DNA of 32,000 bases from contig CAVYEZ010000013.1 in the NCBI GenBank assembly GCA_963767685.1, forward strand, positions 46,457 to 78,456. The letters run 5' to 3'. Both the position numbers and the translations under genes were made by a program. This DNA is from an uncultured Actinomycetota bacterium. GTDB taxonomy: Bacteria; Actinomycetota; Actinomycetes; Streptosporangiales; Streptosporangiaceae. Shown one piece after another: positions 11,556 through 20,500 of this stretch. Positions within the stretch are counted from its first letter, which is position 1. Each line of letters opens with the position of its first letter. Under the pieces are notes generated by a model that worked only from the letters and a program-made list of their open reading frames with translations, searched no databases and was not told the origin of the DNA.

Positions 11556-11617
11556 TTCCCTTTCCGGCAGCGCCCAAGCTTGCCGGGCAGGACGACAAGT
11601 TGGCCTAGATTTGTCGG

Positions 11618-13285
<1,668 letters not shown>

Positions 13286-14765
13286 AGCGCGGTGACCGGG
13301 AACAAAAGTCATCATCCAGAACGGGTTCGTGTTTCACGTCACGAGTACCGGCTTCGCGAGCGGGCACGACGCCCGTAAAGCCGGGAAAATCAGTTACGGT
13401 TCCGCTATGGGCCTGATGGCATCGGCCGGGGAGCCGGCCGCGGTGATTGAGGCCGGGACTGATCGCCTGGCACAGGCGTTCGTGGACTGCCTTCTCGACA
13501 GCGCCCTTGAGCCGGTTCTCGACGCCGCGGTTCAGCGGGGCGGGCAGGGCGCGAAGCGGAAGAAGAACGCCGGCGCTGCCACCCAGATAGATGGCGCGGA
13601 AGTCGCGCGGGCCCTGCTGGCGGTGACGGTCTGCGACCCGGCCTGCGGCTCGGGGAGCCTCCTGGTCGCGGCGGCCCGCCGGATCGCGCGGCGCGTGGCG
13701 GAGGCCCGCGAGGGGAACCAGTCGCCGGACGCGCTGCGGCGGGCGATGCGCGAGGTGGTAGGCAGCTGCATCTACGGTGTCGACGCCAGCCGCGAGGCGG
13801 TGGAACGGACGAAGGACCGCCTGCGGCTGGCGGCCGACGTCCCGGGCATGACGCCGCCTTTCCTGGACGGGCGCGTCAGACCGGGAAATGCCCTGATCGG
13901 CGCGAGTCCGGACCTGATCGAGAGCGGCATCCCCGACGAGGCATTCCGAACGGCCGACGGTGACGACCGCAGGCATGCCCGTTCCCTGCGCCGCGCCAAC
14001 GGCAAGCCGGACCCCGGGCAGGCAACCCTGTTCAGTGAGCAGGGCGGGTACTCGCACTCCAACGACGCCCTGAAAAAGTCCCTGGTGAAGATCGGGAGGC
14101 TGCCCGGCGGGGCATCGGCCGATGACCGCCGCCAGGCGGCCGAGTACCAGAAGTGGCGCGACTCGGCTGCCTTCCGCGCGAAACGCCTGATCGCCGACGC
14201 CTGGTGCGCGGCCTTCGCCTGGGCTAAGACCCCGGACGCGCCGCCCGCGATCGTCAACCGGGTCCTGCTGGACCTGCGGGAGCGGGGGGCCGAAGGGGTT
14301 CTCCCCGCCGAGTCCCTGGCGGAGCTCGACCGGCTGCGCGGTGAGCACGGTTTCTTCCACTGGGACCTGGAGTTCCCCGACGTCTTCCGTGTTCCCGAGG
14401 GCGAGACCCGGTGGCGGGGCGGCTTCAGCTGCGTCCTGTCCGCCCCGCCACGGGAGAAGATCGACCGCCGCGGGGAGAGCACGGCCTTCCGGTTCGCCAC
14501 GGGCTCGGGGGCGTATCCCGAATGCGCGGCCGCCCTGGCCGAACCGGGCGTGTCGGCGCTGGCCGCGGACCAGCTTTTCATCGAGCGGGCCATGACGATC
14601 CTCGCCCCCGACGGCCGCGCGGGCTGCGCCGTTTCCGCGGGCACCGCCGCCGCCCCCGGTGCGAGGCACCTGCTCGGCGGCCTGATGCGCCGCGGCGCGC
14701 TGGCGTCCCTGTATGACTTCACCGGTGCCGACGCCCCGTGCTGCCTGCTCACTTTCGTCGGCGGC

Positions 14766-14805
14766 CCTGTGCGCGACGGTCCTGTGCGCGACGGTCCTGT
14801 GCGCG
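14766..14805 (+). repeat. 15-bp tandem repeat CCTGTGCGCGACGGT, 2.7 copies, at the methyltransferase frame break
   Basis: Read directly from the sequence. It encodes GPVRD-GPVRD-GPVRA in the upstream frame. The frame switch lies just downstream, at about 14806-14820. Confidence 0.9.
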
Positions 14806-15354
14806 CGGGGCGCGGCCAGGTTCGCGTTCCGGCTGGACGGCCCCGCTGACCTCGGCGACGACGGCCGGTCGTTCACGCTGACGCCGGGCGAGGCCGCGCT
14901 CATCAACCCGAACACCGGCGCGCTGCCGGCCTTTCGCGGCTCTAGGGACGCCGCGCTCATCGCGGCGATCTACCGCCGCGCGCCGGCGCTCTGTATCGAA
15001 ACACGGGGAGACGAGACGCGGCCCGACGGGAACCCGTGGAAGATGAGGCTGGAAACGGCGTTCCCCCGGGCCGCCGCCGACACGGGGCTGCTCCGCGCTG
15101 ACCAGGAACTGCGCGACGAAGGCTGGGAACTGGCGGGAAGCACCCTTACCCGCGACGGCCAGTACATGCTCCCGGTCTATGAGCCCCCGATGATTGACCT
15201 GTTCGACCACCGGGTCGCGCGGCCGCGGTACTGGATCGCCGAGCACGGGCCAGTCGCCGTCAAGCGCAAAGGCGGGACCGCCCAGCGCCCCGGCGTGGCC
15301 GACCGCCTCGCGGAACTTGGCTGGAACTGGGAATGGCTGTGCGCTTGGCGCACG

Positions 15355-15399
15355 CCCGTGCGTGAACGGCCCGTGTCTGACAGGCCCGTGCCTGAGAGG
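15355..15399 (+). repeat. imperfect 15-bp tandem repeat x3 (CCCGTGCGTGAACGG / CCCGTGTCTGACAGG / CCCGTGCCTGAGAGG)
   Basis: Read directly from the sequence. It encodes PVRER-PVSDR-PVPER, inserted just before the conserved ...ERT.. segment of the methyltransferase C-terminal domain. Confidence 0.85.
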
Positions 15400-16081
15400 A
15401 CAGCCGTCGCGGTGTTCCTGCCGCGCGCGGCCACTGCCGGTTCCCTGCCCCTGATGCTGCCGCGCGTCGTGCCGCCGTTCGCCGCGGCCCTGATCGCAGC
15501 GCAGAGCTCGCTGGTCTTCGATTACGTCGCCCGGCAGAAGGTCGACGGCCCCGCCGTGCGGGCGGCCGACTGGAAGCAGCTTCCCGTGCCGGCCCCCGAC
15601 ACGCTGGAGCCGTTCCTGCCGTTCATCGTCCCCCGGGTGCTCGAGCTCGTGTACACCTCGCCCGACATGCGGCCGCTGGCCCGCGACCTGGACGATGGGG
15701 GCGAGGATCCGTTCGCCTGGGATCCCGGCCGCCGGGCCAGCCTGCGGGCGGAACTGGACGCCTTGTTCTTCCGCGTGTACGGGATCGACGACCGTGACGA
15801 CGTGGAGTACATCACCGGCGCGCTCCAGGCCGGCGCCGACGACCCAGAACCGGGCAAGAGCCGCGACGACAGAGGTCGGGGCGCCAGGGAACTCATCCTG
15901 GCCACCTACGACCGCATGGTGGAAGCCGGCGCCGCCGGAGCCGAGTACGAAACCCGGATCTTCCCGCCTCCCGGCCACGGACCCAGGAGCAGGCCCATCT
16001 GACAGCGGGCGCGGCGCGCTCAGCCGTGACACCGCTGAGCGTCGTGCCCTAACCGTTACCTAAGTCCGCGCATCTAGAGTC

Positions 16082-16297
16082 CCCGCCGATCACGACCTGG
16101 TCAAGGATGACATCCCGATCAGACTCGGACCGGTGGGGGGACGGCTGGTTGGTGAAGTCTTTGCCTCCCTGCTTCGCGGTGACCTCGCCTCGTACCTCTA
16201 CGCCCAGCCTGCGTTCACACCGATCGCGGACTTCACGCGCGGGGGAACATTCGGACTCGCCGAGCCGATCAACGTGGCCCTGGGCCGCACGCCCTGA
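16082..16297 (+). pseudogene. C-terminal remnant (about 71 codons) of a haem-peroxidase-family gene
   Basis: Translation PADHDLVKDDIPIRLGPVGGRLVGEVFASLLRGDLASYLYAQPAFTPIADFTRGGTFGLAEPINVALGRTP*. This resembles the conserved C-terminal LGPVGGRIVAEV..GLL.GD..SYL...P.W.P motif of bacterial animal-haem-peroxidase homologues, as I recall it. The frame is closed by TAA at 16061-16063, so no N-terminal part exists. Confidence 0.4.
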
Positions 16298-16303
16298 CCA
16301 TCC

Positions 16304-16447
16304 TCAGCTGATCATTGACCGGATCAGGGCGCCGCTCTCGACCTCGGCGCTGTACCGGGTGCTGAGCGCGCCGAACTCGAGCATGACGTTGGCGACGCGC
16401 TGGATATTCGGCGCCTCCACCGAGCCGGTCGTAAAATTGCTGTTGCG
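16304..16447 (-). pseudogene. unassigned 3' gene fragment
   Basis: The minus-frame translation RNSNFTTGSVEAPNIQRVANVMLEFGALSTRYSAEVESGALIRSMIS* has third-position G+C of about 90%, which is coding-like. The frame has no plausible 5' part and runs into an AT-rich stretch at 16440-16510. I do not recognise the family. Confidence 0.25.
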
Positions 16448-16594
16448 TGAGCGGTATTCGGGCGGCCGCCGCGTTGAATATGTACATGATTTGTTTAATC
16501 ACTGGCGACTTTGTGGGGCCGCTCTTGGCGCCGACGCGAAGGGTCCGCCAGGCGGCCGGGCGGCGAGGACCGGGAGGCGCCGGGTTTCAACCCG

Positions 16595-16669
16595 CTAGTC
16601 AAGCCAGCGTGGTGTTGTCAGCACGTGCGCGGTTTTGGATATGCCGGCGATATGCGCGGGCTCGTAGCC
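16595..16669 (+). repeat. copy A of a van-type intergenic/promoter module (diverged duplicate of 19584-19658)
   Basis: Ungapped hand alignment with 19584-19658 gives 56/75 identical positions. The core is CGGTTTTGGATATGCCGGCGATATG versus CGGTTTTCGATACGCCGACGATATG. It lies 8 nt upstream of the ATG of the response-regulator stub. Confidence 0.7.
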
Positions 16670-16677
16670 TCGGGAGC

Positions 16678-16701
16678 ATGCGTGTGCTGGTGGTCGAGGA
16701 T
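16678..16701 (+). pseudogene. 8-codon stub of an OmpR/VanR-type response regulator gene (MRVLVVED...)
   Basis: ATG CGT GTG CTG GTG GTC GAG GAT is the canonical receiver-domain N-terminus. The sequence after codon 8 (CPASATAS...) is not receiver-like and leads into the IS256 fragment. Confidence 0.35.
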
Positions 16702-16730
16702 TGCCCGGCGTCGGCTACCGCATCGACACA

Positions 16731-16814
16731 AAGTGGACCATGCGCTGGAAGCCAGCCCTGAACGCATTCGCGATAACCTTCGGCGACCGCTTCCCTGCGG
16801 CCGAGACCTACTAA
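16731..16814 (+). mobile_element. 3' remnant of an IS256-family (mutator-type) transposase gene
   Basis: Translation KWTMRWKPALNAFAITFGDRFPAAETY* matches the conserved extreme C-terminus of IS256-family transposases (W...RWK.ALNAFAI.FGDR). Nothing upstream of about 16705 resembles the rest of the transposase. Confidence 0.6.
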
Positions 16815-16866
16815 CCAAGACCGCCGGAAACACCGTTGGCGAGATAGTCCCGGGCTCTGCGTCACG

Positions 16867-16885
16867 GTGCGGCTGCCCGCCGCAC
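16867..16885 (-). terminator. small hairpin downstream of vanX
   Basis: GTGCGGC-TGCCC-GCCGCAC, 14 nt after the vanX stop codon. No U-tract. Confidence 0.3.
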
Positions 16886-16898
16886 AACCAGCGGGGGA

Positions 16899-17507
16899 CT
16901 ACGTGATGGGGAAATCGAAGTAGGTGTTGGGGTACGGCTCGTGTTTGAGGGTGTAGTGCCACCATTCGCGTGCGTAGGAGTCGAAGCCGCAGTCCTGCAT
17001 GATGGTGCGGAGGTGGTGCCGGTTTTCCGCTTCGGCTGACGTGATTCCTCGTGCTCCGTGATGGGACAGCGCGTCCATCAAGTCGTGGTCGCCGCCCATG
17101 GGAGCAAGATCACCGGTGGCTAGCTGGTACAGCGTCAGGTCGACGGTGCCGCCCCGGCTGTGACCTGACCTGGCGGCCACATAGCCCCGCTCGAACACCT
17201 CCGGCCTGCCGATGTTCGGGTAGTGACGTCGTTTCGTGCGGCCGTTCTCCGGCTGCCTCGACCAGCGCAGGAAGCAGTCGACGGCGCGCTGCGGGCGGTA
17301 GCCGTCCCACAGGAGCAGGCCGAAGCCCAGGGATGCGGCTTCTTCTTCGGCTCTGTTCAGGGCGGCGCACAGGGCCCTGGTGCCGACGATGCGGTTGGCT
17401 TGGTATCCGTCCACCGGTTTGCCGGTGAAGTTGTCCCAGGTGGCGTATTTGGCATCCCACCGTATGCCGGGGACGAACTCGTCGACGAAGACGAAGTCGC
17501 TGTTCAC
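16899..17507 (-). CDS. vanX: D-Ala-D-Ala dipeptidase VanX
   Basis: 202 aa, colinear with Tn1546 VanX. Shared motifs: IRWDAKYATWDNFTGKPVDGY, LLLWDGYRPQRAV, the zinc/catalytic motifs SGHSRGGTVDLT and EWWHY, and the C-terminal YFDFPI. The GTG start overlaps the ligase stop (GTGA). Confidence 0.95.
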   Translation of the reverse strand: MNSDFVFVDEFVPGIRWDAKYATWDNFTGKPVDGYQANRIVGTRALCAALNRAEEEAASLGFGLLLWDGYRPQRAVDCFLRWSRQPENGRTKRRHYPNIGRPEVFERGYVAARSGHSRGGTVDLTLYQLATGDLAPMGGDHDLMDALSHHGARGITSAEAENRHHLRTIMQDCGFDSYAREWWHYTLKHEPYPNTYFDFPIT

Positions 17508-18544
17508 CGCTTCTTGCCGTCCAGCGTCAGCGCCACCAGCCGTTCGATGACGTCGGCGAGGGACAGTCCTGCGGCGGCCATCATTCTCGGGTAGCGGCTG
17601 TAGGAGGTCATGCCGGGCAGGGTGTTGACCTCGTTGAGTACGACCGTTCCGTCGTCGGTCAGGAACGTGTCCACCCGGGCGAGTCCCTTACAGCCCAGAG
17701 CGCGGTAGATGACCTTTGCCGTCTCCTGGACTAGCGAGCGCGCCTCGGCCGGGATGTCGGCGGGCACGACGAACGCGGAGTTCTCTGAGCCGCTTTCCGG
17801 ATTGCTCTCTTGATGGATTCTGAAGAAGCCGTGCGAGAGCGCAACCCGGTCTACCTCGCCTGCGACCAGTCCGAATCGTCCCCCGAGGATGGCGCAGCCG
17901 ACCTCGCTGCCGACAACGGCCTCTTCGATCAGCACCTTGGCGTCGTACTGCCGTGCGGTCTCTATCGCACTCGGCAGTTCTTCTTGTCCAGAAACCTTGC
18001 TGACGCCGAAGGACGAGCCCGAACGGGCCGGCTTGACGAAGACGGGATAGGTAAGGCTGTCCGGGGCGATCTTCTCGTTCTCCGTGATCACCCAGTGTTT
18101 CGGTGTGGCGATTCCCGCGTTACCGGCGACGATATAGGCCAGGGACTTGTCCATGCACAGCGCCGAGCTTGGTATGTCGCAGCCCACGTAGGGAATGCCC
18201 GACAGTTCCAGCAGGCCCTGGATCGCGCCGTCTTCGCCGAGCTTGCCGTGCAGAAGGGGCAAGACCACGTCCAGACGGATCATGTCGTATCGTTCCCGCT
18301 CCAGAACGAGCAGCCCGTGGACGCTTCGGTCCGGTGACAGCACGACTGGGAGGCTGTCGCGGCTCTCCCAGTTCGAGCCCGGGCCGTCACACAGCTTCCA
18401 CGCCCCGGTGGTCGTGATCCCGATCCACAGCGGCTCGTACTTGCCGAGGTCGAGGTGTTTCGCGACCTCCTGCGCGGACTTGACCGACACCGGGTGTTCT
18501 TCGGAGCAGCCGCCGAAGATGATTCCGATTTTCAGCTTTCGCAC
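17504..18544 (-). CDS. vanA: D-alanine--(R)-lactate ligase, VanA/VanB type
   Basis: 346 aa, colinear with enterococcal VanA. Shared motifs: IIFGGCSEEHPVSVKSA, YEPLWIGIT, LHGKLGEDGAIQGLLELSGIPYVGCD, YPVFVKPARSGSSFGV, EVGCAILG, FFRIHQE (D-Lac-specific His), LARVDTFL, NEVNTLPGMTSYSRYPRMMAAAG. The GTG start lies 8 nt after AAGGAG. Confidence 0.95.
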   Translation of the reverse strand: MRKLKIGIIFGGCSEEHPVSVKSAQEVAKHLDLGKYEPLWIGITTTGAWKLCDGPGSNWESRDSLPVVLSPDRSVHGLLVLERERYDMIRLDVVLPLLHGKLGEDGAIQGLLELSGIPYVGCDIPSSALCMDKSLAYIVAGNAGIATPKHWVITENEKIAPDSLTYPVFVKPARSGSSFGVSKVSGQEELPSAIETARQYDAKVLIEEAVVGSEVGCAILGGRFGLVAGEVDRVALSHGFFRIHQESNPESGSENSAFVVPADIPAEARSLVQETAKVIYRALGCKGLARVDTFLTDDGTVVLNEVNTLPGMTSYSRYPRMMAAAGLSLADVIERLVALTLDGKKR

Positions 18545-19578
18545 GCCGTCTTCTCCTTTTCGAACGTGAGGCAGGTGATGATGGTGTTTTCCACGGCGTC
18601 ACTCAAGGCGTGGTCGGTGTAGTAGGCGGTGTGCGGGCTGATGATCACGTTGGGCAGTTGCTGCAGCCGCGTCAGCGGAGTGTTGTCGAGGCGCCTGTTT
18701 CTGCAGTCGGTGTAGAAGATCCCGTCCTCCCCTTCGAGGACGTCCAACGCCGCACCGCCTAGCCGGCCGCTTTCCAGCGCTGAAAGAAGGGACTCGGTGT
18801 CGATCAGTGAGCCGCGCCCGGTGTTGATGATGAACGCGCCGTGCTTCATCTGCCCGATACGCCGACGATCCAGGAGATGGTGCGTGTCCGCGGTGAGCGG
18901 GGTGTGGAGGGTGACGATGTCGCTCTGCTCGAGCAGTTCGTCGAGCGGAACGTAGCGGGCCCCGGTTTCCTGACGGGTGTCGTAGGCCAAGGCCCGGCAG
19001 CCGAATCCCCGCAGCCGGTCCAGGACCGCCGAGCCGATGCGTCCCGTTCCAACGACCCCGACGGTCAGGTCGCGGAGCTCTTTCCCGCGCGCGTCATGCA
19101 GCCGGTAGTCATGAGCGTCGGTCTGGCGGATGACGGATTTCGCATTCCGCACGGCCATCAGCATCAGCATGAGCGCGTAGTCGGCCACGCTGTCGGGTGA
19201 ATAGGCGACATTACCCACGCAGATGCCGACGCTCCGCGCGTAGCTAACGTCGATGTGGTTGTATCCGATACTTCGCGTGGAGACGTACCTGACGCCGGCC
19301 CGGCTGAGCGCCAGCAGGGTGGAACCCGTAACCGGGGTTTTGTGGCCGACGCTGATGCATCGGTTTCCAGACGCCAGCCCGACGTTGGCCTCGGACACCG
19401 CTGCCTCGGTGATAGTCGGCGCAACGCCGAAACGAGGCGCGACCTCCCGGAACACAGCAGCCTCGTCCGGCCCGCACCCGTACACGGTGATTCCCGTGCC
19501 TGGGACAGACGAGGAGGACGCGGACGCCATCGAGGGGGCGCGACCGGCCGCTGGCCGCGCTGGCTCGCTAGAGGTCAT
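18532..19578 (-). CDS. vanH: D-specific alpha-keto acid (pyruvate to D-lactate) dehydrogenase VanH
   Basis: Colinear with Tn1546 VanH. Shared motifs: GITVYGCGPDEA, CISVGHKT, VSTRSIGYNHID, NVAYSPDSVADYALMLMLMAVRN, GVVGTGRIG, IVTLHTPLTADTHH, NTGRG, GGAALDVLEGE, SPHTAYYT. The ATG at 19578 has GGAGGG only 1 nt upstream, which is unusually close. The internal ATG at 19530 (MASASSSS...) is an alternative start. Confidence 0.95.
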   Translation of the reverse strand: MTSSEPARPAAGRAPSMASASSSSVPGTGITVYGCGPDEAAVFREVAPRFGVAPTITEAAVSEANVGLASGNRCISVGHKTPVTGSTLLALSRAGVRYVSTRSIGYNHIDVSYARSVGICVGNVAYSPDSVADYALMLMLMAVRNAKSVIRQTDAHDYRLHDARGKELRDLTVGVVGTGRIGSAVLDRLRGFGCRALAYDTRQETGARYVPLDELLEQSDIVTLHTPLTADTHHLLDRRRIGQMKHGAFIINTGRGSLIDTESLLSALESGRLGGAALDVLEGEDGIFYTDCRNRRLDNTPLTRLQQLPNVIISPHTAYYTDHALSDAVENTIITCLTFEKEKTACES

Positions 19579-19583
19579 GCCCT

Positions 19584-19658
19584 CCAGTCAAGGCAGCCGG
19601 GTGTTGCCAGCGCGTATACGGTTTTCGATACGCCGACGATATGTTGCCGCCCGTAGCG
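19584..19658 (-). promoter_or_regulatory. copy B of the van intergenic module: probable vanH promoter with phased direct repeats
   Basis: Lies immediately upstream of the vanH ATG. On the vanH-sense strand it reads aTATCGtcggcgTATCGaaaaccgTATACg. The repeat units sit at plus coordinates 19637-19641, 19626-19630 and 19614-19618, spaced 11 and 12 bp apart, as expected for OmpR/PhoB-family activators such as VanR. Confidence 0.55.
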
Positions 19659-19669
19659 TGCGGGGACCA

Positions 19670-19710
19670 CGTCACGGTGCATCGCCGGCGAGGGCGACGG
19701 CACCGTGACG
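19670..19710 (-). terminator. hairpin between the DUF1707 gene stop and the vanH promoter module
   Basis: 11-bp perfect arms CGTCACGGTGC / GCACCGTGACG. The 19-nt loop itself contains the palindrome TCGCCGGCGA. It starts 12 nt after the upstream gene's stop codon. Confidence 0.4.
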
Positions 19711-19721
19711 GTGACCGCGCG

Positions 19722-20345
19722 TTACGCGTCTTTGTCCTCGGCCGCCCGCCTGGCCTCGCGGGCCAGTTGCCGTCGCATGATCCAGTCCGGTCGGCGGACG
19801 GTGACCGCTCCGCAGAACACGTCGCAGTTGACGACGATCACCGGCGCTCCGGGCTGAGGCTCGCCGCGCAGCTGTGACGACTTGGCGCCGAGCACCGCGC
19901 GGCCATTCATGCGCACGTCGATCCCGTCGGGCACGAAGATGGTCATCGACCCGAACCTCACGGTGGCGTCGATGGTGGTGACGTGCTGGCGGATTACAGC
20001 CTGTTGCATTTCCAGGTGGCAGTCACCCAGCACTGAGCGGACCGTAATGTGCGCGGGAACCACCCAAGGGCCCTTGCGCGACTCATTGCCCAGCACCGCG
20101 GTGATCTCTACAGGAACCGGCGCAGGGTCACCTTGCGGCAGCGCGGGAAGATCGGTGGTCAGGCCGGTCAGCTCACCAAGGGTGCGCGCGACGAGCGCGG
20201 CGTCACTCCGCTGCGAGTATTCCTCCAGGCTGAGCCGCCCCTCGGCGCTGGCTGCGGCAAGGGCCTCGAGGGTCTGCTCACGGTCGGCGTCCGAGGCACG
20301 CAGCGGGCTGTTCCCCTGCTGTTCGTGTCCGCTGTCAAGACTCAA
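19722..20345 (-). CDS. DUF1707 (SHOCT-like) protein with LiaF-like C-terminal domain (cell-wall-active antibiotic response family)
   Basis: N-terminal LRASDADREQTLEALAAASAEGRLSLEEYSQRSDAALVARTLGELTGLTTDLP matches the DUF1707 signature. The C-terminal beta-rich segment runs GPWVVPAHITVRSVLGDCHLEMQQA...FGSMTIFVPDGIDVRMNGRAVLG. I prefer the TTG at 20345, 6 nt after GGGGAGG. The track ORF extends to a GTG at 20441. Confidence 0.7.
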   Translation of the reverse strand: MSLDSGHEQQGNSPLRASDADREQTLEALAAASAEGRLSLEEYSQRSDAALVARTLGELTGLTTDLPALPQGDPAPVPVEITAVLGNESRKGPWVVPAHITVRSVLGDCHLEMQQAVIRQHVTTIDATVRFGSMTIFVPDGIDVRMNGRAVLGAKSSQLRGEPQPGAPVIVVNCDVFCGAVTVRRPDWIMRRQLAREARRAAEDKDA

Positions 20346-20500
20346 GGCCAGCCTCCCCGGCTTGTTGCTCGGTGGCCCCAGCGCGAACCGCAGCCTGGCC
20401 GATTCTCGTCGATGACAGTGTCGCGCATCAAGTGGAGGCACGGATATCGGCCAGATCGGCTGCCCCCAGGCGGCTCGCGGCCTATTACTCGCGGCCCTGG

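Follow-up and report, generated by a model that had tools for sequence, protein, structure and literature searches.

Introduction

Environmental actinomycetes are regarded as the reservoir that gave rise to clinical vanA-type glycopeptide resistance. Arrangements that consist of vanHAX only, and vanR and vanS pseudogenes that are impaired, have been catalogued across the Actinobacteria (Andreo-Vidal et al. 2021, PMC8698665). A vanHAX operon without intact adjacent regulators is uncommon but documented. Actinomycetes often carry vanRS pairs at other loci, vanYRS for example (PMC8698665), and VnlR of Amycolatopsis balhimycina activates the vanHAX promoter of Streptomyces coelicolor (PMC5036315). 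Kilian et al. (PMC5036315) describe the VanR operator motif in actinomycetes as still undetermined, and no published actinomycete VanR operator was found in the open literature searched. The subject of this report is a vanHAX operon from an uncultured bacterium of the Streptosporangiaceae (assembly GCA_963767685.1). It lies at positions 16899 to 19578 of a stretch of 32,000 nucleotides, hereafter the window (contig CAVYEZ010000013.1, positions 46,457 to 78,456 of the forward strand).

The reference layout for this comparison is that of the Dactylosporangium locus L012, in which murF is followed by vanH-vanA-vanX, convergent vanS and vanR, and a divergent vanY. The van-derived island in the window spans about 16.5-19.72 kb, and everything in it except vanHAX and the promoter cassette of vanHAX is reduced to stubs. 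The sequence is best read as a functional, actinomycete-type vanHAX that has kept its promoter and is most likely driven by a distal VanR/VanS pair from another part of the genome (probability about 0.6). What is new in the locus, as judged from sequence comparison, is a set of relics that establish the ancestral layout, independent deletions of vanR in sister genomes, and the unequal conservation of two promoter copies.

Composition of the vanHAX operon

Genes were called as open reading frames (ORFs) with support from G+C content at third codon positions (GC3). All such ORFs were scanned with Pfam, and the 32-kb window was searched by six-frame tblastn. Families were assigned with NCBIfam models and their curated cut-offs, with generic and allele-specific models kept apart. 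The relatives compared are 80 loci from species-representative genomes and closer, metagenome-derived loci such as L081 and L082; individual loci are given by L numbers.

The operon is on the minus strand. It consists of vanH (18532..19578), which encodes a D-lactate dehydrogenase of 348 aa, a gene for a VanA-type D-alanine-(R)-lactate ligase of 346 aa (17504..18544), and vanX (16899..17507), which encodes a zinc D-Ala-D-Ala dipeptidase of 202 aa. Direct reading of the sequence shows an overlap of 13 nt between vanH and the ligase gene and a GTGA overlap between the ligase gene and vanX. VanH scores 549 bits against the vanH_gen model (cut-off 540) and matches the Pfam families 2-Hacid_dh and 2-Hacid_dh_C. 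The ligase scores 604 bits against the D_ala_D_lac equivalog model (NF000206, cut-off 550), 386 bits against VanG and 337 bits against the best model of D-Ala-D-Ala ligases (Ddl; PRK01966.1-4). VanX scores 396 bits against its own model (NF033115, cut-off 320).

The diagnostic residues are present in all three proteins. VanH contains GVVGTGRIG at residue 174, NTGRG (Arg) at 252, DVLEGE (Glu) at 279 and SPHTAYYT (His) at 314. The ligase contains FFRIHQE at residue 240, which includes the omega-loop His244, and the substrate-binding residues E16, E250, R290 and S316 (VanA numbering) are kept as well. Its alignments with the VanA structures 3SE7 (570 bits) and 1E4E (489 bits) are without gaps, and any D-Ala-D-Ala or D-Ala-D-Ser ligase scores 309 bits or less. 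VanX contains SGHSRGGTVDLT at residue 114 and EWWHY at 181. It aligns without gaps with the structure 1R44, and the zinc ligands H116, D123 and H184, the catalytic E181 and R71 are kept in register.

An earlier note on this DNA, made by a model from the sequence alone, had described a complete D-Ala-D-Lac vanHAX operon with a ligase distinct from ordinary Ddl, and both claims are borne out. The ORF calls and the reading of the sequence also confirm its gene coordinates, the two overlaps and every motif that it quoted. The profile search with hidden Markov models that it proposed places all three proteins above the cut-offs of their generic families.

The allele-specific models all score below their cut-offs. 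For the ligase, the scores are 619 of 750 bits for VanO, 618 of 700 for VanI, 590 of 700 for VanA-Ao2, 598 of 650 for VanA-Sc and 511 of 775 for VanA. VanH scores 533 bits against VanH-Sc (cut-off 650). The ligase falls outside every named allele for which there is a model (VanA, B, D, F, M, O, I, A-Sc and A-Ao2). From these scores, the operon is an unnamed vanHAX allele with the family features of VanH, a VanA-type ligase and VanX. A search of a large protein collection found an identical (100%) ligase, P0001, and relatives at 90-96% identity, and the closest ligase among the species representatives is 81% identical. The likeness to the Tn1546 proteins described in the note holds in kind, and the residues align with those of 1E4E and 1R44. 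Actinomycete van clusters are nonetheless closer to the operon, and the NCBIfam models with the best scores are VanO, VanI, VanA-Sc and VanA-Ao2.

Family membership and the kept catalytic residues predict that VanH would convert pyruvate to D-lactate. The ligase, by its family, would form the D-Ala-D-Lac depsipeptide, and VanX would destroy D-Ala-D-Ala. The cell's own MurF would load the depsipeptide, and antibiotics of the vancomycin class would have little affinity for the resulting precursors with their terminal D-Lac. Pfam scans of the 32-kb window found no nonribosomal peptide synthetase (NRPS), P450, halogenase or glycosyltransferase genes, that is, no genes for glycopeptide biosynthesis. 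The pattern of producer self-resistance, with a glycopeptide biosynthetic cluster alongside the resistance genes, is absent within these 32 kb.

Remnants of the regulatory genes

Pfam scans and six-frame tblastn of the 32 kb found no gene for a histidine kinase, an intact response regulator, VanY, VanK, VanJ or MurF. This agrees with the earlier note, which had listed all of these except MurF as absent. It had also reported no cognate vanRS in the window, which is correct for intact genes but overlooks stubs of both vanR and vanS. The gap of roughly 900 bp on the 3' side of vanX contains a vanRS relic of about 300 bp (16595-16890) that is convergent on vanX. An intact vanR and vanS beside vanHAX, as in the canonical arrangement, are replaced here by these stubs. 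Among the 80 species-representative loci, VanR is encoded within 10 kb in 50 and VanS in 54, mostly convergent on vanX.

The relic begins with a decaying second van promoter cassette on the minus strand (16595..16666; nhmmer, 58.6 bits), which corresponds to the divergent promoter of vanR and vanY. It is followed on the plus strand by a 5' stub of vanR (16678..16701), which comprises codons 1-8 (MRVLVVED). The vanR promoter and these eight codons (16594-16700) match L012 over 107 nt with 84% identity (E 2e-26) and L085 over 105 nt with 89.5% identity. The stub ends at a deletion junction (16701/16702), directly followed by a 3' relic of vanR on the plus strand (16702..16730). This relic holds the last ~9 codons (...PGVGYRIDT) and is out of frame with the 5' stub; its 29 nt are 97% identical to L085 and 100% identical to L032. 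The internal deletion of vanR measures 604 bp.

The last ~12-17 codons of vanS are also present on the plus strand (16840..16890), ending GLCVTVRLPAAQP and convergent on vanX. In this relic, 33 nt are 97% identical to L085, and tblastn aligns it with residues 348-364 of the L012 VanS. Filler from 16731 to about 16839-16850 separates the vanR and vanS 3' relics and stands in place of about 1.09 kb of vanS. Alignments of 16731-16850 with the vanS genes of L081, L082 and L085 are fragmentary, and none is credible. A few loci carry homology to the end of vanR and the start of vanS on to about 16764.

Two further partners are represented by stubs that are visible at the DNA level only; at the protein level, six-frame searches of the window give no significant match to VanY, MurF, VanK or VanJ. 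A possible vanY-like 5' relic on the minus strand (16530..16594) is weak, with about 72% identity to the vanY starts of L016, L043, L003 and L074, and is continuous with the decaying cassette. A 5' relic of murF lies on the plus strand, divergent from vanH (19641..19720), and matches the murF starts of L059, L014, L045, L037 and L012 by blastn. It contains frame-breaking indels and an in-frame TAG, and over its last 32 nt the identity to L012 is 91%. The murF homology stops at 19720, and the DUF1707 gene next to it has its stop codon two bases away.

The vanR pieces and the vanS piece are all on the plus strand and are collinear with the intact vanRS of L012 and L085 and with the sister loci. 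The vanR, vanS and murF stubs show that the cluster once had the canonical actinomycete layout and that its regulators were lost by deletion.

The DNA beyond the vanY-like stub is also eroded. A 3' fragment of a gene for an NMT1-type substrate-binding protein lies on the minus strand (16294..16431) and is 91-98% identical to the last ~130 nt of a gene of 325/336 aa that is intact in L082/L081. Two ORF fragments, 16064-16294 and 16308-16448, have no Pfam match; the second is the 3' end of this NMT1-type gene. Compared with L082 (13045-16862), the segment 16043-16600 is a deletion hotspot, in which the window lacks ~1.1 kb of the NMT1-type gene and ~2.6 kb that include an ORF of 830 aa. The NMT1 fragment is separated from the vanY-like stub by DNA with an AT-rich patch, GAATATGTACATGATTTGTTTAATCAC (about 16470-16497).

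The promoter of vanH

An intact VanR-type promoter cassette lies directly 5' of vanH on the minus strand (19583..19655; nhmmer, 76 bits). It consists, in order, of a direct repeat (CATATCGTCGG/CGTATCGAAAA) with 11-bp spacing, GGCAACACC, CCTTGACT, a GGAGGG ribosome-binding site and the ATG. A direct-repeat spacing of 11 bp is typical of OmpR/PhoB-family operators. The 75 nt 5' of vanH are 80-88% identical to vanH upstream sequences in many genera. The consensus of the cassette is CATATCG-N4-CATATCG, AAAACCG, GGCAACACC, CCTTGACT, a GGAGG ribosome-binding site and ATG. By sequence, vanH is preceded by a VanR-type promoter with a putative operator.

An nhmmer model built from these vanH-upstream sequences was run over 81 sources and finds 152 copies of the cassette in 73 of them. 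The genes that follow the copies are vanH (73), vanY (22), murF, FemAB-type vanK, vanJ-like genes, an ABC transporter gene and vanR, and many copies stand back to back with vanR. The window contains exactly two copies. The vanH copy keeps all conserved blocks, and its score is close to that of the best copy (79 bits). The relic copy has lost its leftward ribosome-binding site and start codon, and its conserved blocks are substituted.

The two copies also differ in their divergence from the sister loci L081 and L082. The vanH cassette has 0 mismatches in 85 positions and 2 in 93, where synonymous sites differ by 9-15%. The relic cassette has 7 mismatches in 81 positions and 8 in 80 (Fisher p = 0.0007 for the comparison with the vanH cassette). 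Upstream deletions in the sisters end within a few nt of the first operator repeat. From this contrast between a nearly unchanged vanH cassette and a drifting relic copy, the vanH promoter is inferred to be still in use.

The conservation of the cassette extends into the first ~8 codons of the gene that follows (19560-19582 in the window; likewise in copies from L001-L088). Examples of the cassette are found in L059 (6242-6340), L066 (7505-7600) and L012 (8829-8899). VanH, VanK and the small ORFs before murF share the start M-x-x-S-E-P-A-(R/S). In VanH, the cassette contributes an N-terminal extension of ~29 residues (MTSSEPARPAA...) that lies outside the dehydrogenase domain, and on the murF side the cassette-encoded start is a separate ORF of 22-39 codons. 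This pattern suggests that promoter, leader and first codons travel as one module, or that the leader is regulatory.

Deletions in the sister genomes

The ligases of L081 and L082 are 96% and 95% identical to that of the window. Both loci have the same chromosomal context as the window, with genes for an aldehyde dehydrogenase, MarR, an MFS protein, a 158-aa ORF and an LLM oxidoreductase beside vanHAX, at 94-98% nucleotide identity. This synteny is found only in L081 and L082; in none of the 80 species-representative loci do the flanking genes of the window lie beside van genes. The nearest outgroups, L083-L088 (ligase 90-93%), are in a different context, several of them among NRPS genes, and their vanR is intact and convergent.

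The vanR deletions were mapped on the coordinates of the intact L085. The deletion spans 13309-13912 in the window (604 bp, out of frame), 13287-13838 in L081 (552 bp) and 13262-13888 in L082 (627 bp). The window keeps vanR 3' sequence that both sisters have lost, and it lacks vanR 5' sequence that both sisters have kept. On this mapping, vanR was lost independently at least two times, most simply three.

The state of vanS also differs among the three genomes. Most of the gene is missing from the window, L081 has a copy with a frameshift, possibly an error of long-read assembly, and L082 keeps it at full length. On the other side of the operon, the DUF1707 gene and the murF stub are gone in L081 and L082, and a 29-nt remnant of DUF1707 in L081 shows that this gene is ancestral.

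The full-length vanS of L082 (11622-12798) stands behind the vanR promoter and an in-frame vanR remnant of 22 codons, as an orphan sensor kinase without an adjacent response regulator. The nearest relatives of the operon with intact vanRS are L083-L086, with ligases 92-93% identical to that of the window. In L083 (1-7065 and 16107-21041), and likewise in L084-L086, the van operon lies among NRPS genes, which encode AMP-binding, PP-binding and Condensation domains. Genes for glyoxalase, F420-oxidoreductase, Lactamase_B and MFS proteins are also present around it. These regions may be peptide-antibiotic clusters with vanHAXSR as self-resistance. MurG-like C-terminal fragments (Glyco_tran_28_C) occur between vanX and a truncated vanS in L083 (11707-12066) and L088 (11706-12017), an instance of accessory-gene erosion.

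Selection on the operon

The ratio of nonsynonymous to synonymous divergence (dN/dS) was taken for pairs among the window, L081 and L082, at a synonymous divergence (dS) of 0.09-0.15. The ratio is 0.15-0.18 for the ligase gene, 0.15-0.34 for vanX and 0.24-0.33 for vanH. No stop codons or frameshifts are present in vanHAX in any of the three genomes. These ratios are in line with those of the pair with intact vanRS, L085 and L086 (0.12-0.20 for vanHAX), and of the flanking genes, which give 0.03-0.07 (LLM), 0.17-0.21 (MFS) and 0.18-0.34 (MarR).

Disruptive events are distributed unequally. In the three genomes, at least five have occurred in the 1.8 kb of vanRS and none in the 2.7 kb of vanHAX. 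If events fell evenly per kb, the chance of this split would be about 0.4^5 = 0.01. The cassette and vanHAX behave as a selected unit that has been trimmed by deletions on both sides.

Regulation of the operon

The preferred reading is that a VanR/VanS pair encoded at a distance acts on vanHAX. The ancestral layout of murF, vanHAX, convergent vanS and vanR, and a divergent vanY-like gene was reduced by deletion of the partners to stubs. Under this reading, the distal pair would have made the local vanRS redundant and free to decay. This reading is favoured because the operator is conserved, the local copy has been lost repeatedly in a manner that fits neutral loss, VnlR acts across genera, and distal vanRS pairs are frequent. 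VanR is 88-95% identical across genera. For the narrower claim that such a pair drives the conserved operator, the odds are close to even.

Several points weigh against this reading. The 32-kb window contains no second vanRS, and the distal pair is itself inferred. Conservation of the promoter could reflect basal -35/-10 function or the binding of an unrelated factor. Deletion of vanRS in S. coelicolor abolishes resistance, as cited second-hand in PMC5036315, and by that precedent the operon would be silent without a factor acting in trans. The dN/dS of vanH (0.24-0.33) is somewhat above that of the pair with intact vanRS (0.12), and as dN/dS spans the whole divergence, part of the signal may predate the loss of vanR.

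The strongest competitor, possible but clearly the less favoured, is that vanHAX functions without any VanR. Transcription would be constitutive, from the basal cassette promoter or by read-through, and the cell would have a permanent D-Lac wall. This is the condition in A. balhimycina, where vanHAX is constitutive and independent of the VanRS-like system (PMC5036315, PMC7325946). In the window as in L081 and L082, the gene upstream of vanH is read in the same direction, and a crude scan shows no terminator-like site between the DUF1707 stop codon (19722) and vanH. Repeated loss of vanR would suit a lineage that has no need for induction, and purifying selection on vanHAX fits this reading equally well. 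It would not obviously require the operator direct repeats, yet these are conserved with the rest of the cassette. The same scan, which is crude and uninformative for actinomycete promoters, shows no sigma-70-like promoter, and the single hairpin that it finds is weak and lies on the opposite strand. Read-through is further opposed by the sisters, which have other upstream genes after the deletion of DUF1707 yet keep an intact cassette.

A more doubtful proposal is that the repeated loss of vanR is an adaptive rewiring and not the neutral decay of a redundant gene. It would represent an escape from glycopeptide-inducible control, either to a non-cognate regulator that binds the same repeats or to a constitutive D-Lac wall in a non-producer.

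It is improbable that vanHAX is a silent remnant, one that has lost its regulator, is untranscribed and has not yet accumulated disabling mutations. All other van genes of the island are destroyed, and the region 3' of vanX is prone to deletion, with the NMT1 gene and the 830-aa ORF lost relative to L082. S. coelicolor without vanRS is glycopeptide-sensitive, according to the account given in PMC5036315. Against a silent operon, the 2.7 kb of vanHAX are uninterrupted in three genomes at dS ~0.1, with dN/dS of 0.15-0.34. Change in the vanH cassette is far slower than in the relic copy nearby, and on either side the deletions reach no further than the borders of the unit formed by the cassette and vanHAX.

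An ordinary, housekeeping D-Ala-D-Ala ligase beside an unrelated dehydrogenase and peptidase can be rejected as next to impossible, for although the ligase also matches generic Ddl models such as PRK01966.1-4, it scores far higher against the D-Ala-D-Lac model and the VanA structures, has His244 in its omega-loop, shows translational coupling with genes whose products score above the VanH and VanX cut-offs, and is flanked by the vanRS relic and van promoter cassettes.

Base composition and origin

The G+C content of vanHAX is 64.4%, and that of the rest of the window is 70.3%. The earlier note had counted a lower G+C in these genes by hand, which the measurement supports, and had taken it together with codon choice as consistent with horizontal acquisition. 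Codons ending in A or T are indeed enriched in the van genes (AAA 11.1 against 0.8 and ATA 3.3 against 0.3 per 1000, from small counts), but their GC3 of 0.82-0.83 is within the range of several neighbours (GH92 0.78, LacI 0.81, DUF1707 0.79).

At 59 of 61 related loci, vanHAX is likewise below its flanks in G+C (median 62.3% against 69.7%). Because the same offset recurs across these loci, low G+C is a trait of the gene family and gives no evidence of recent transfer, which is rejected as its explanation. The operon occupies the same chromosomal site in L081 and L082 at dS ~0.1, which implies vertical inheritance since before these lineages split. The argument for horizontal acquisition from G+C and codon use is therefore weak. 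An older transfer into the lineage is plausible, because the flanks occur in no species-representative locus and the nearest outgroups are in another context.

Other genes in the window

Outside the van island, the genes identified by Pfam encode PLD-like, LacI and GH92 proteins, two GFO/Idh/MocA oxidoreductases, BNR-repeat proteins, an ABC-F ATPase and an Eco57I/MmeI-like methyltransferase. Beyond the van genes, there follow a DUF1707/LiaF-C protein, an F420-type LLM oxidoreductase, MFS, MarR, an amidohydrolase, an aldehyde dehydrogenase, an AstE-like protein, an asparaginase and RpiR. No Rfam families and no tRNAs were found in the window.

The DUF1707 (SHOCT-like) gene lies directly 5' of vanH on the minus strand (19722-20441). 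Its product has a LiaF-like C-terminal domain ('cell wall-active antibiotics response'), and none of the other 80 loci has such a gene beside its van cluster. The methyltransferase (13296-16002; type IIG or BREX PglX-like) is split into overlapping frames at 13296-14849 and 14686-16002. A frameshifted pseudogene or an error of sequencing is the probable cause; in L082, the corresponding region is also called as fragments. The ABC-F ATPase (11609-13285) is 3.6 kb from the van island. Its best NCBIfam model is 'ribosomal protection-like ABC-F family protein' (353 bits, below the cut-off of 380), and it is possibly of the antibiotic-resistance type.

Implications

The three related genomes form a natural experiment, in which the local regulator was lost at least two times independently while the enzymes and their promoter stayed under selection. 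They raise the testable question of whether a vanHAX that lacks its own VanRS can remain of use to the cell, either because a distal VanRS acts on it or because it is expressed constitutively. For surveillance, the absence of an adjacent vanRS does not mean that vanHAX is dead. Low G+C in vanHAX is likewise a family trait and not a sign of recent transfer.

Comparison with known systems

The enterococcal system of Tn1546, vanRSHAXYZ, resembles the operon in the window in its biochemistry (here predicted from sequence) and in the order vanH-ligase-vanX, and the residues of 1E4E and 1R44 correspond one to one. It differs in its allele, as the window ligase reaches 511 of 775 bits in the VanA model, and in its setting, which here is a high-GC chromosomal locus without transposon genes. 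The ancestral vanRS of this locus was convergent and downstream, whereas that of Tn1546 is upstream and co-directional. The best-scoring structure is the VanA from ancient permafrost DNA (3SE7), which aligns gap-free over residues 4-346 at 570 bits. VanO, VanI and VanA-Ao2 are the best NCBIfam allele models (619, 618 and 590 bits), all below their cut-offs (750, 700 and 700).

The vanRS-vanJ-vanK-vanHAX cluster of S. coelicolor (VanA-Sc) has the same three enzymes, with model scores of 598 bits for the ligase and 533 for VanH, and the same type of cassette is found 5' of vanH in related Streptomyces loci. Unlike in S. coelicolor, the cut-offs of VanA-Sc and VanH-Sc (650 and 650) are not reached, the window contains no vanK or vanJ, and vanRS is present as stubs.

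Within the catalogue of Andreo-Vidal et al., the locus belongs to the same 'vanHAX' content class, beside vanRS pairs in which one gene is missing or is a pseudogene. The present comparison differs from that catalogue in documenting lineage-specific, independent deletions of vanR together with purifying selection and promoter conservation.

The nearest functional precedent is the vanHAX of A. balhimycina, which is separated from vnlRS and constitutive, and which like the operon described here has no adjacent functional vanRS (PMC5036315, PMC7325946). That species is a precedent both for expression independent of VanR and for a VanR homologue that acts in trans on the vanH promoter of another. 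It is a glycopeptide producer with a biosynthetic cluster, whereas the 32 kb of the window contain no biosynthetic genes. In the window, unlike in A. balhimycina, the loss of vanRS is documented by relics that are still in place, and this loss recurs independently in the sister genomes.

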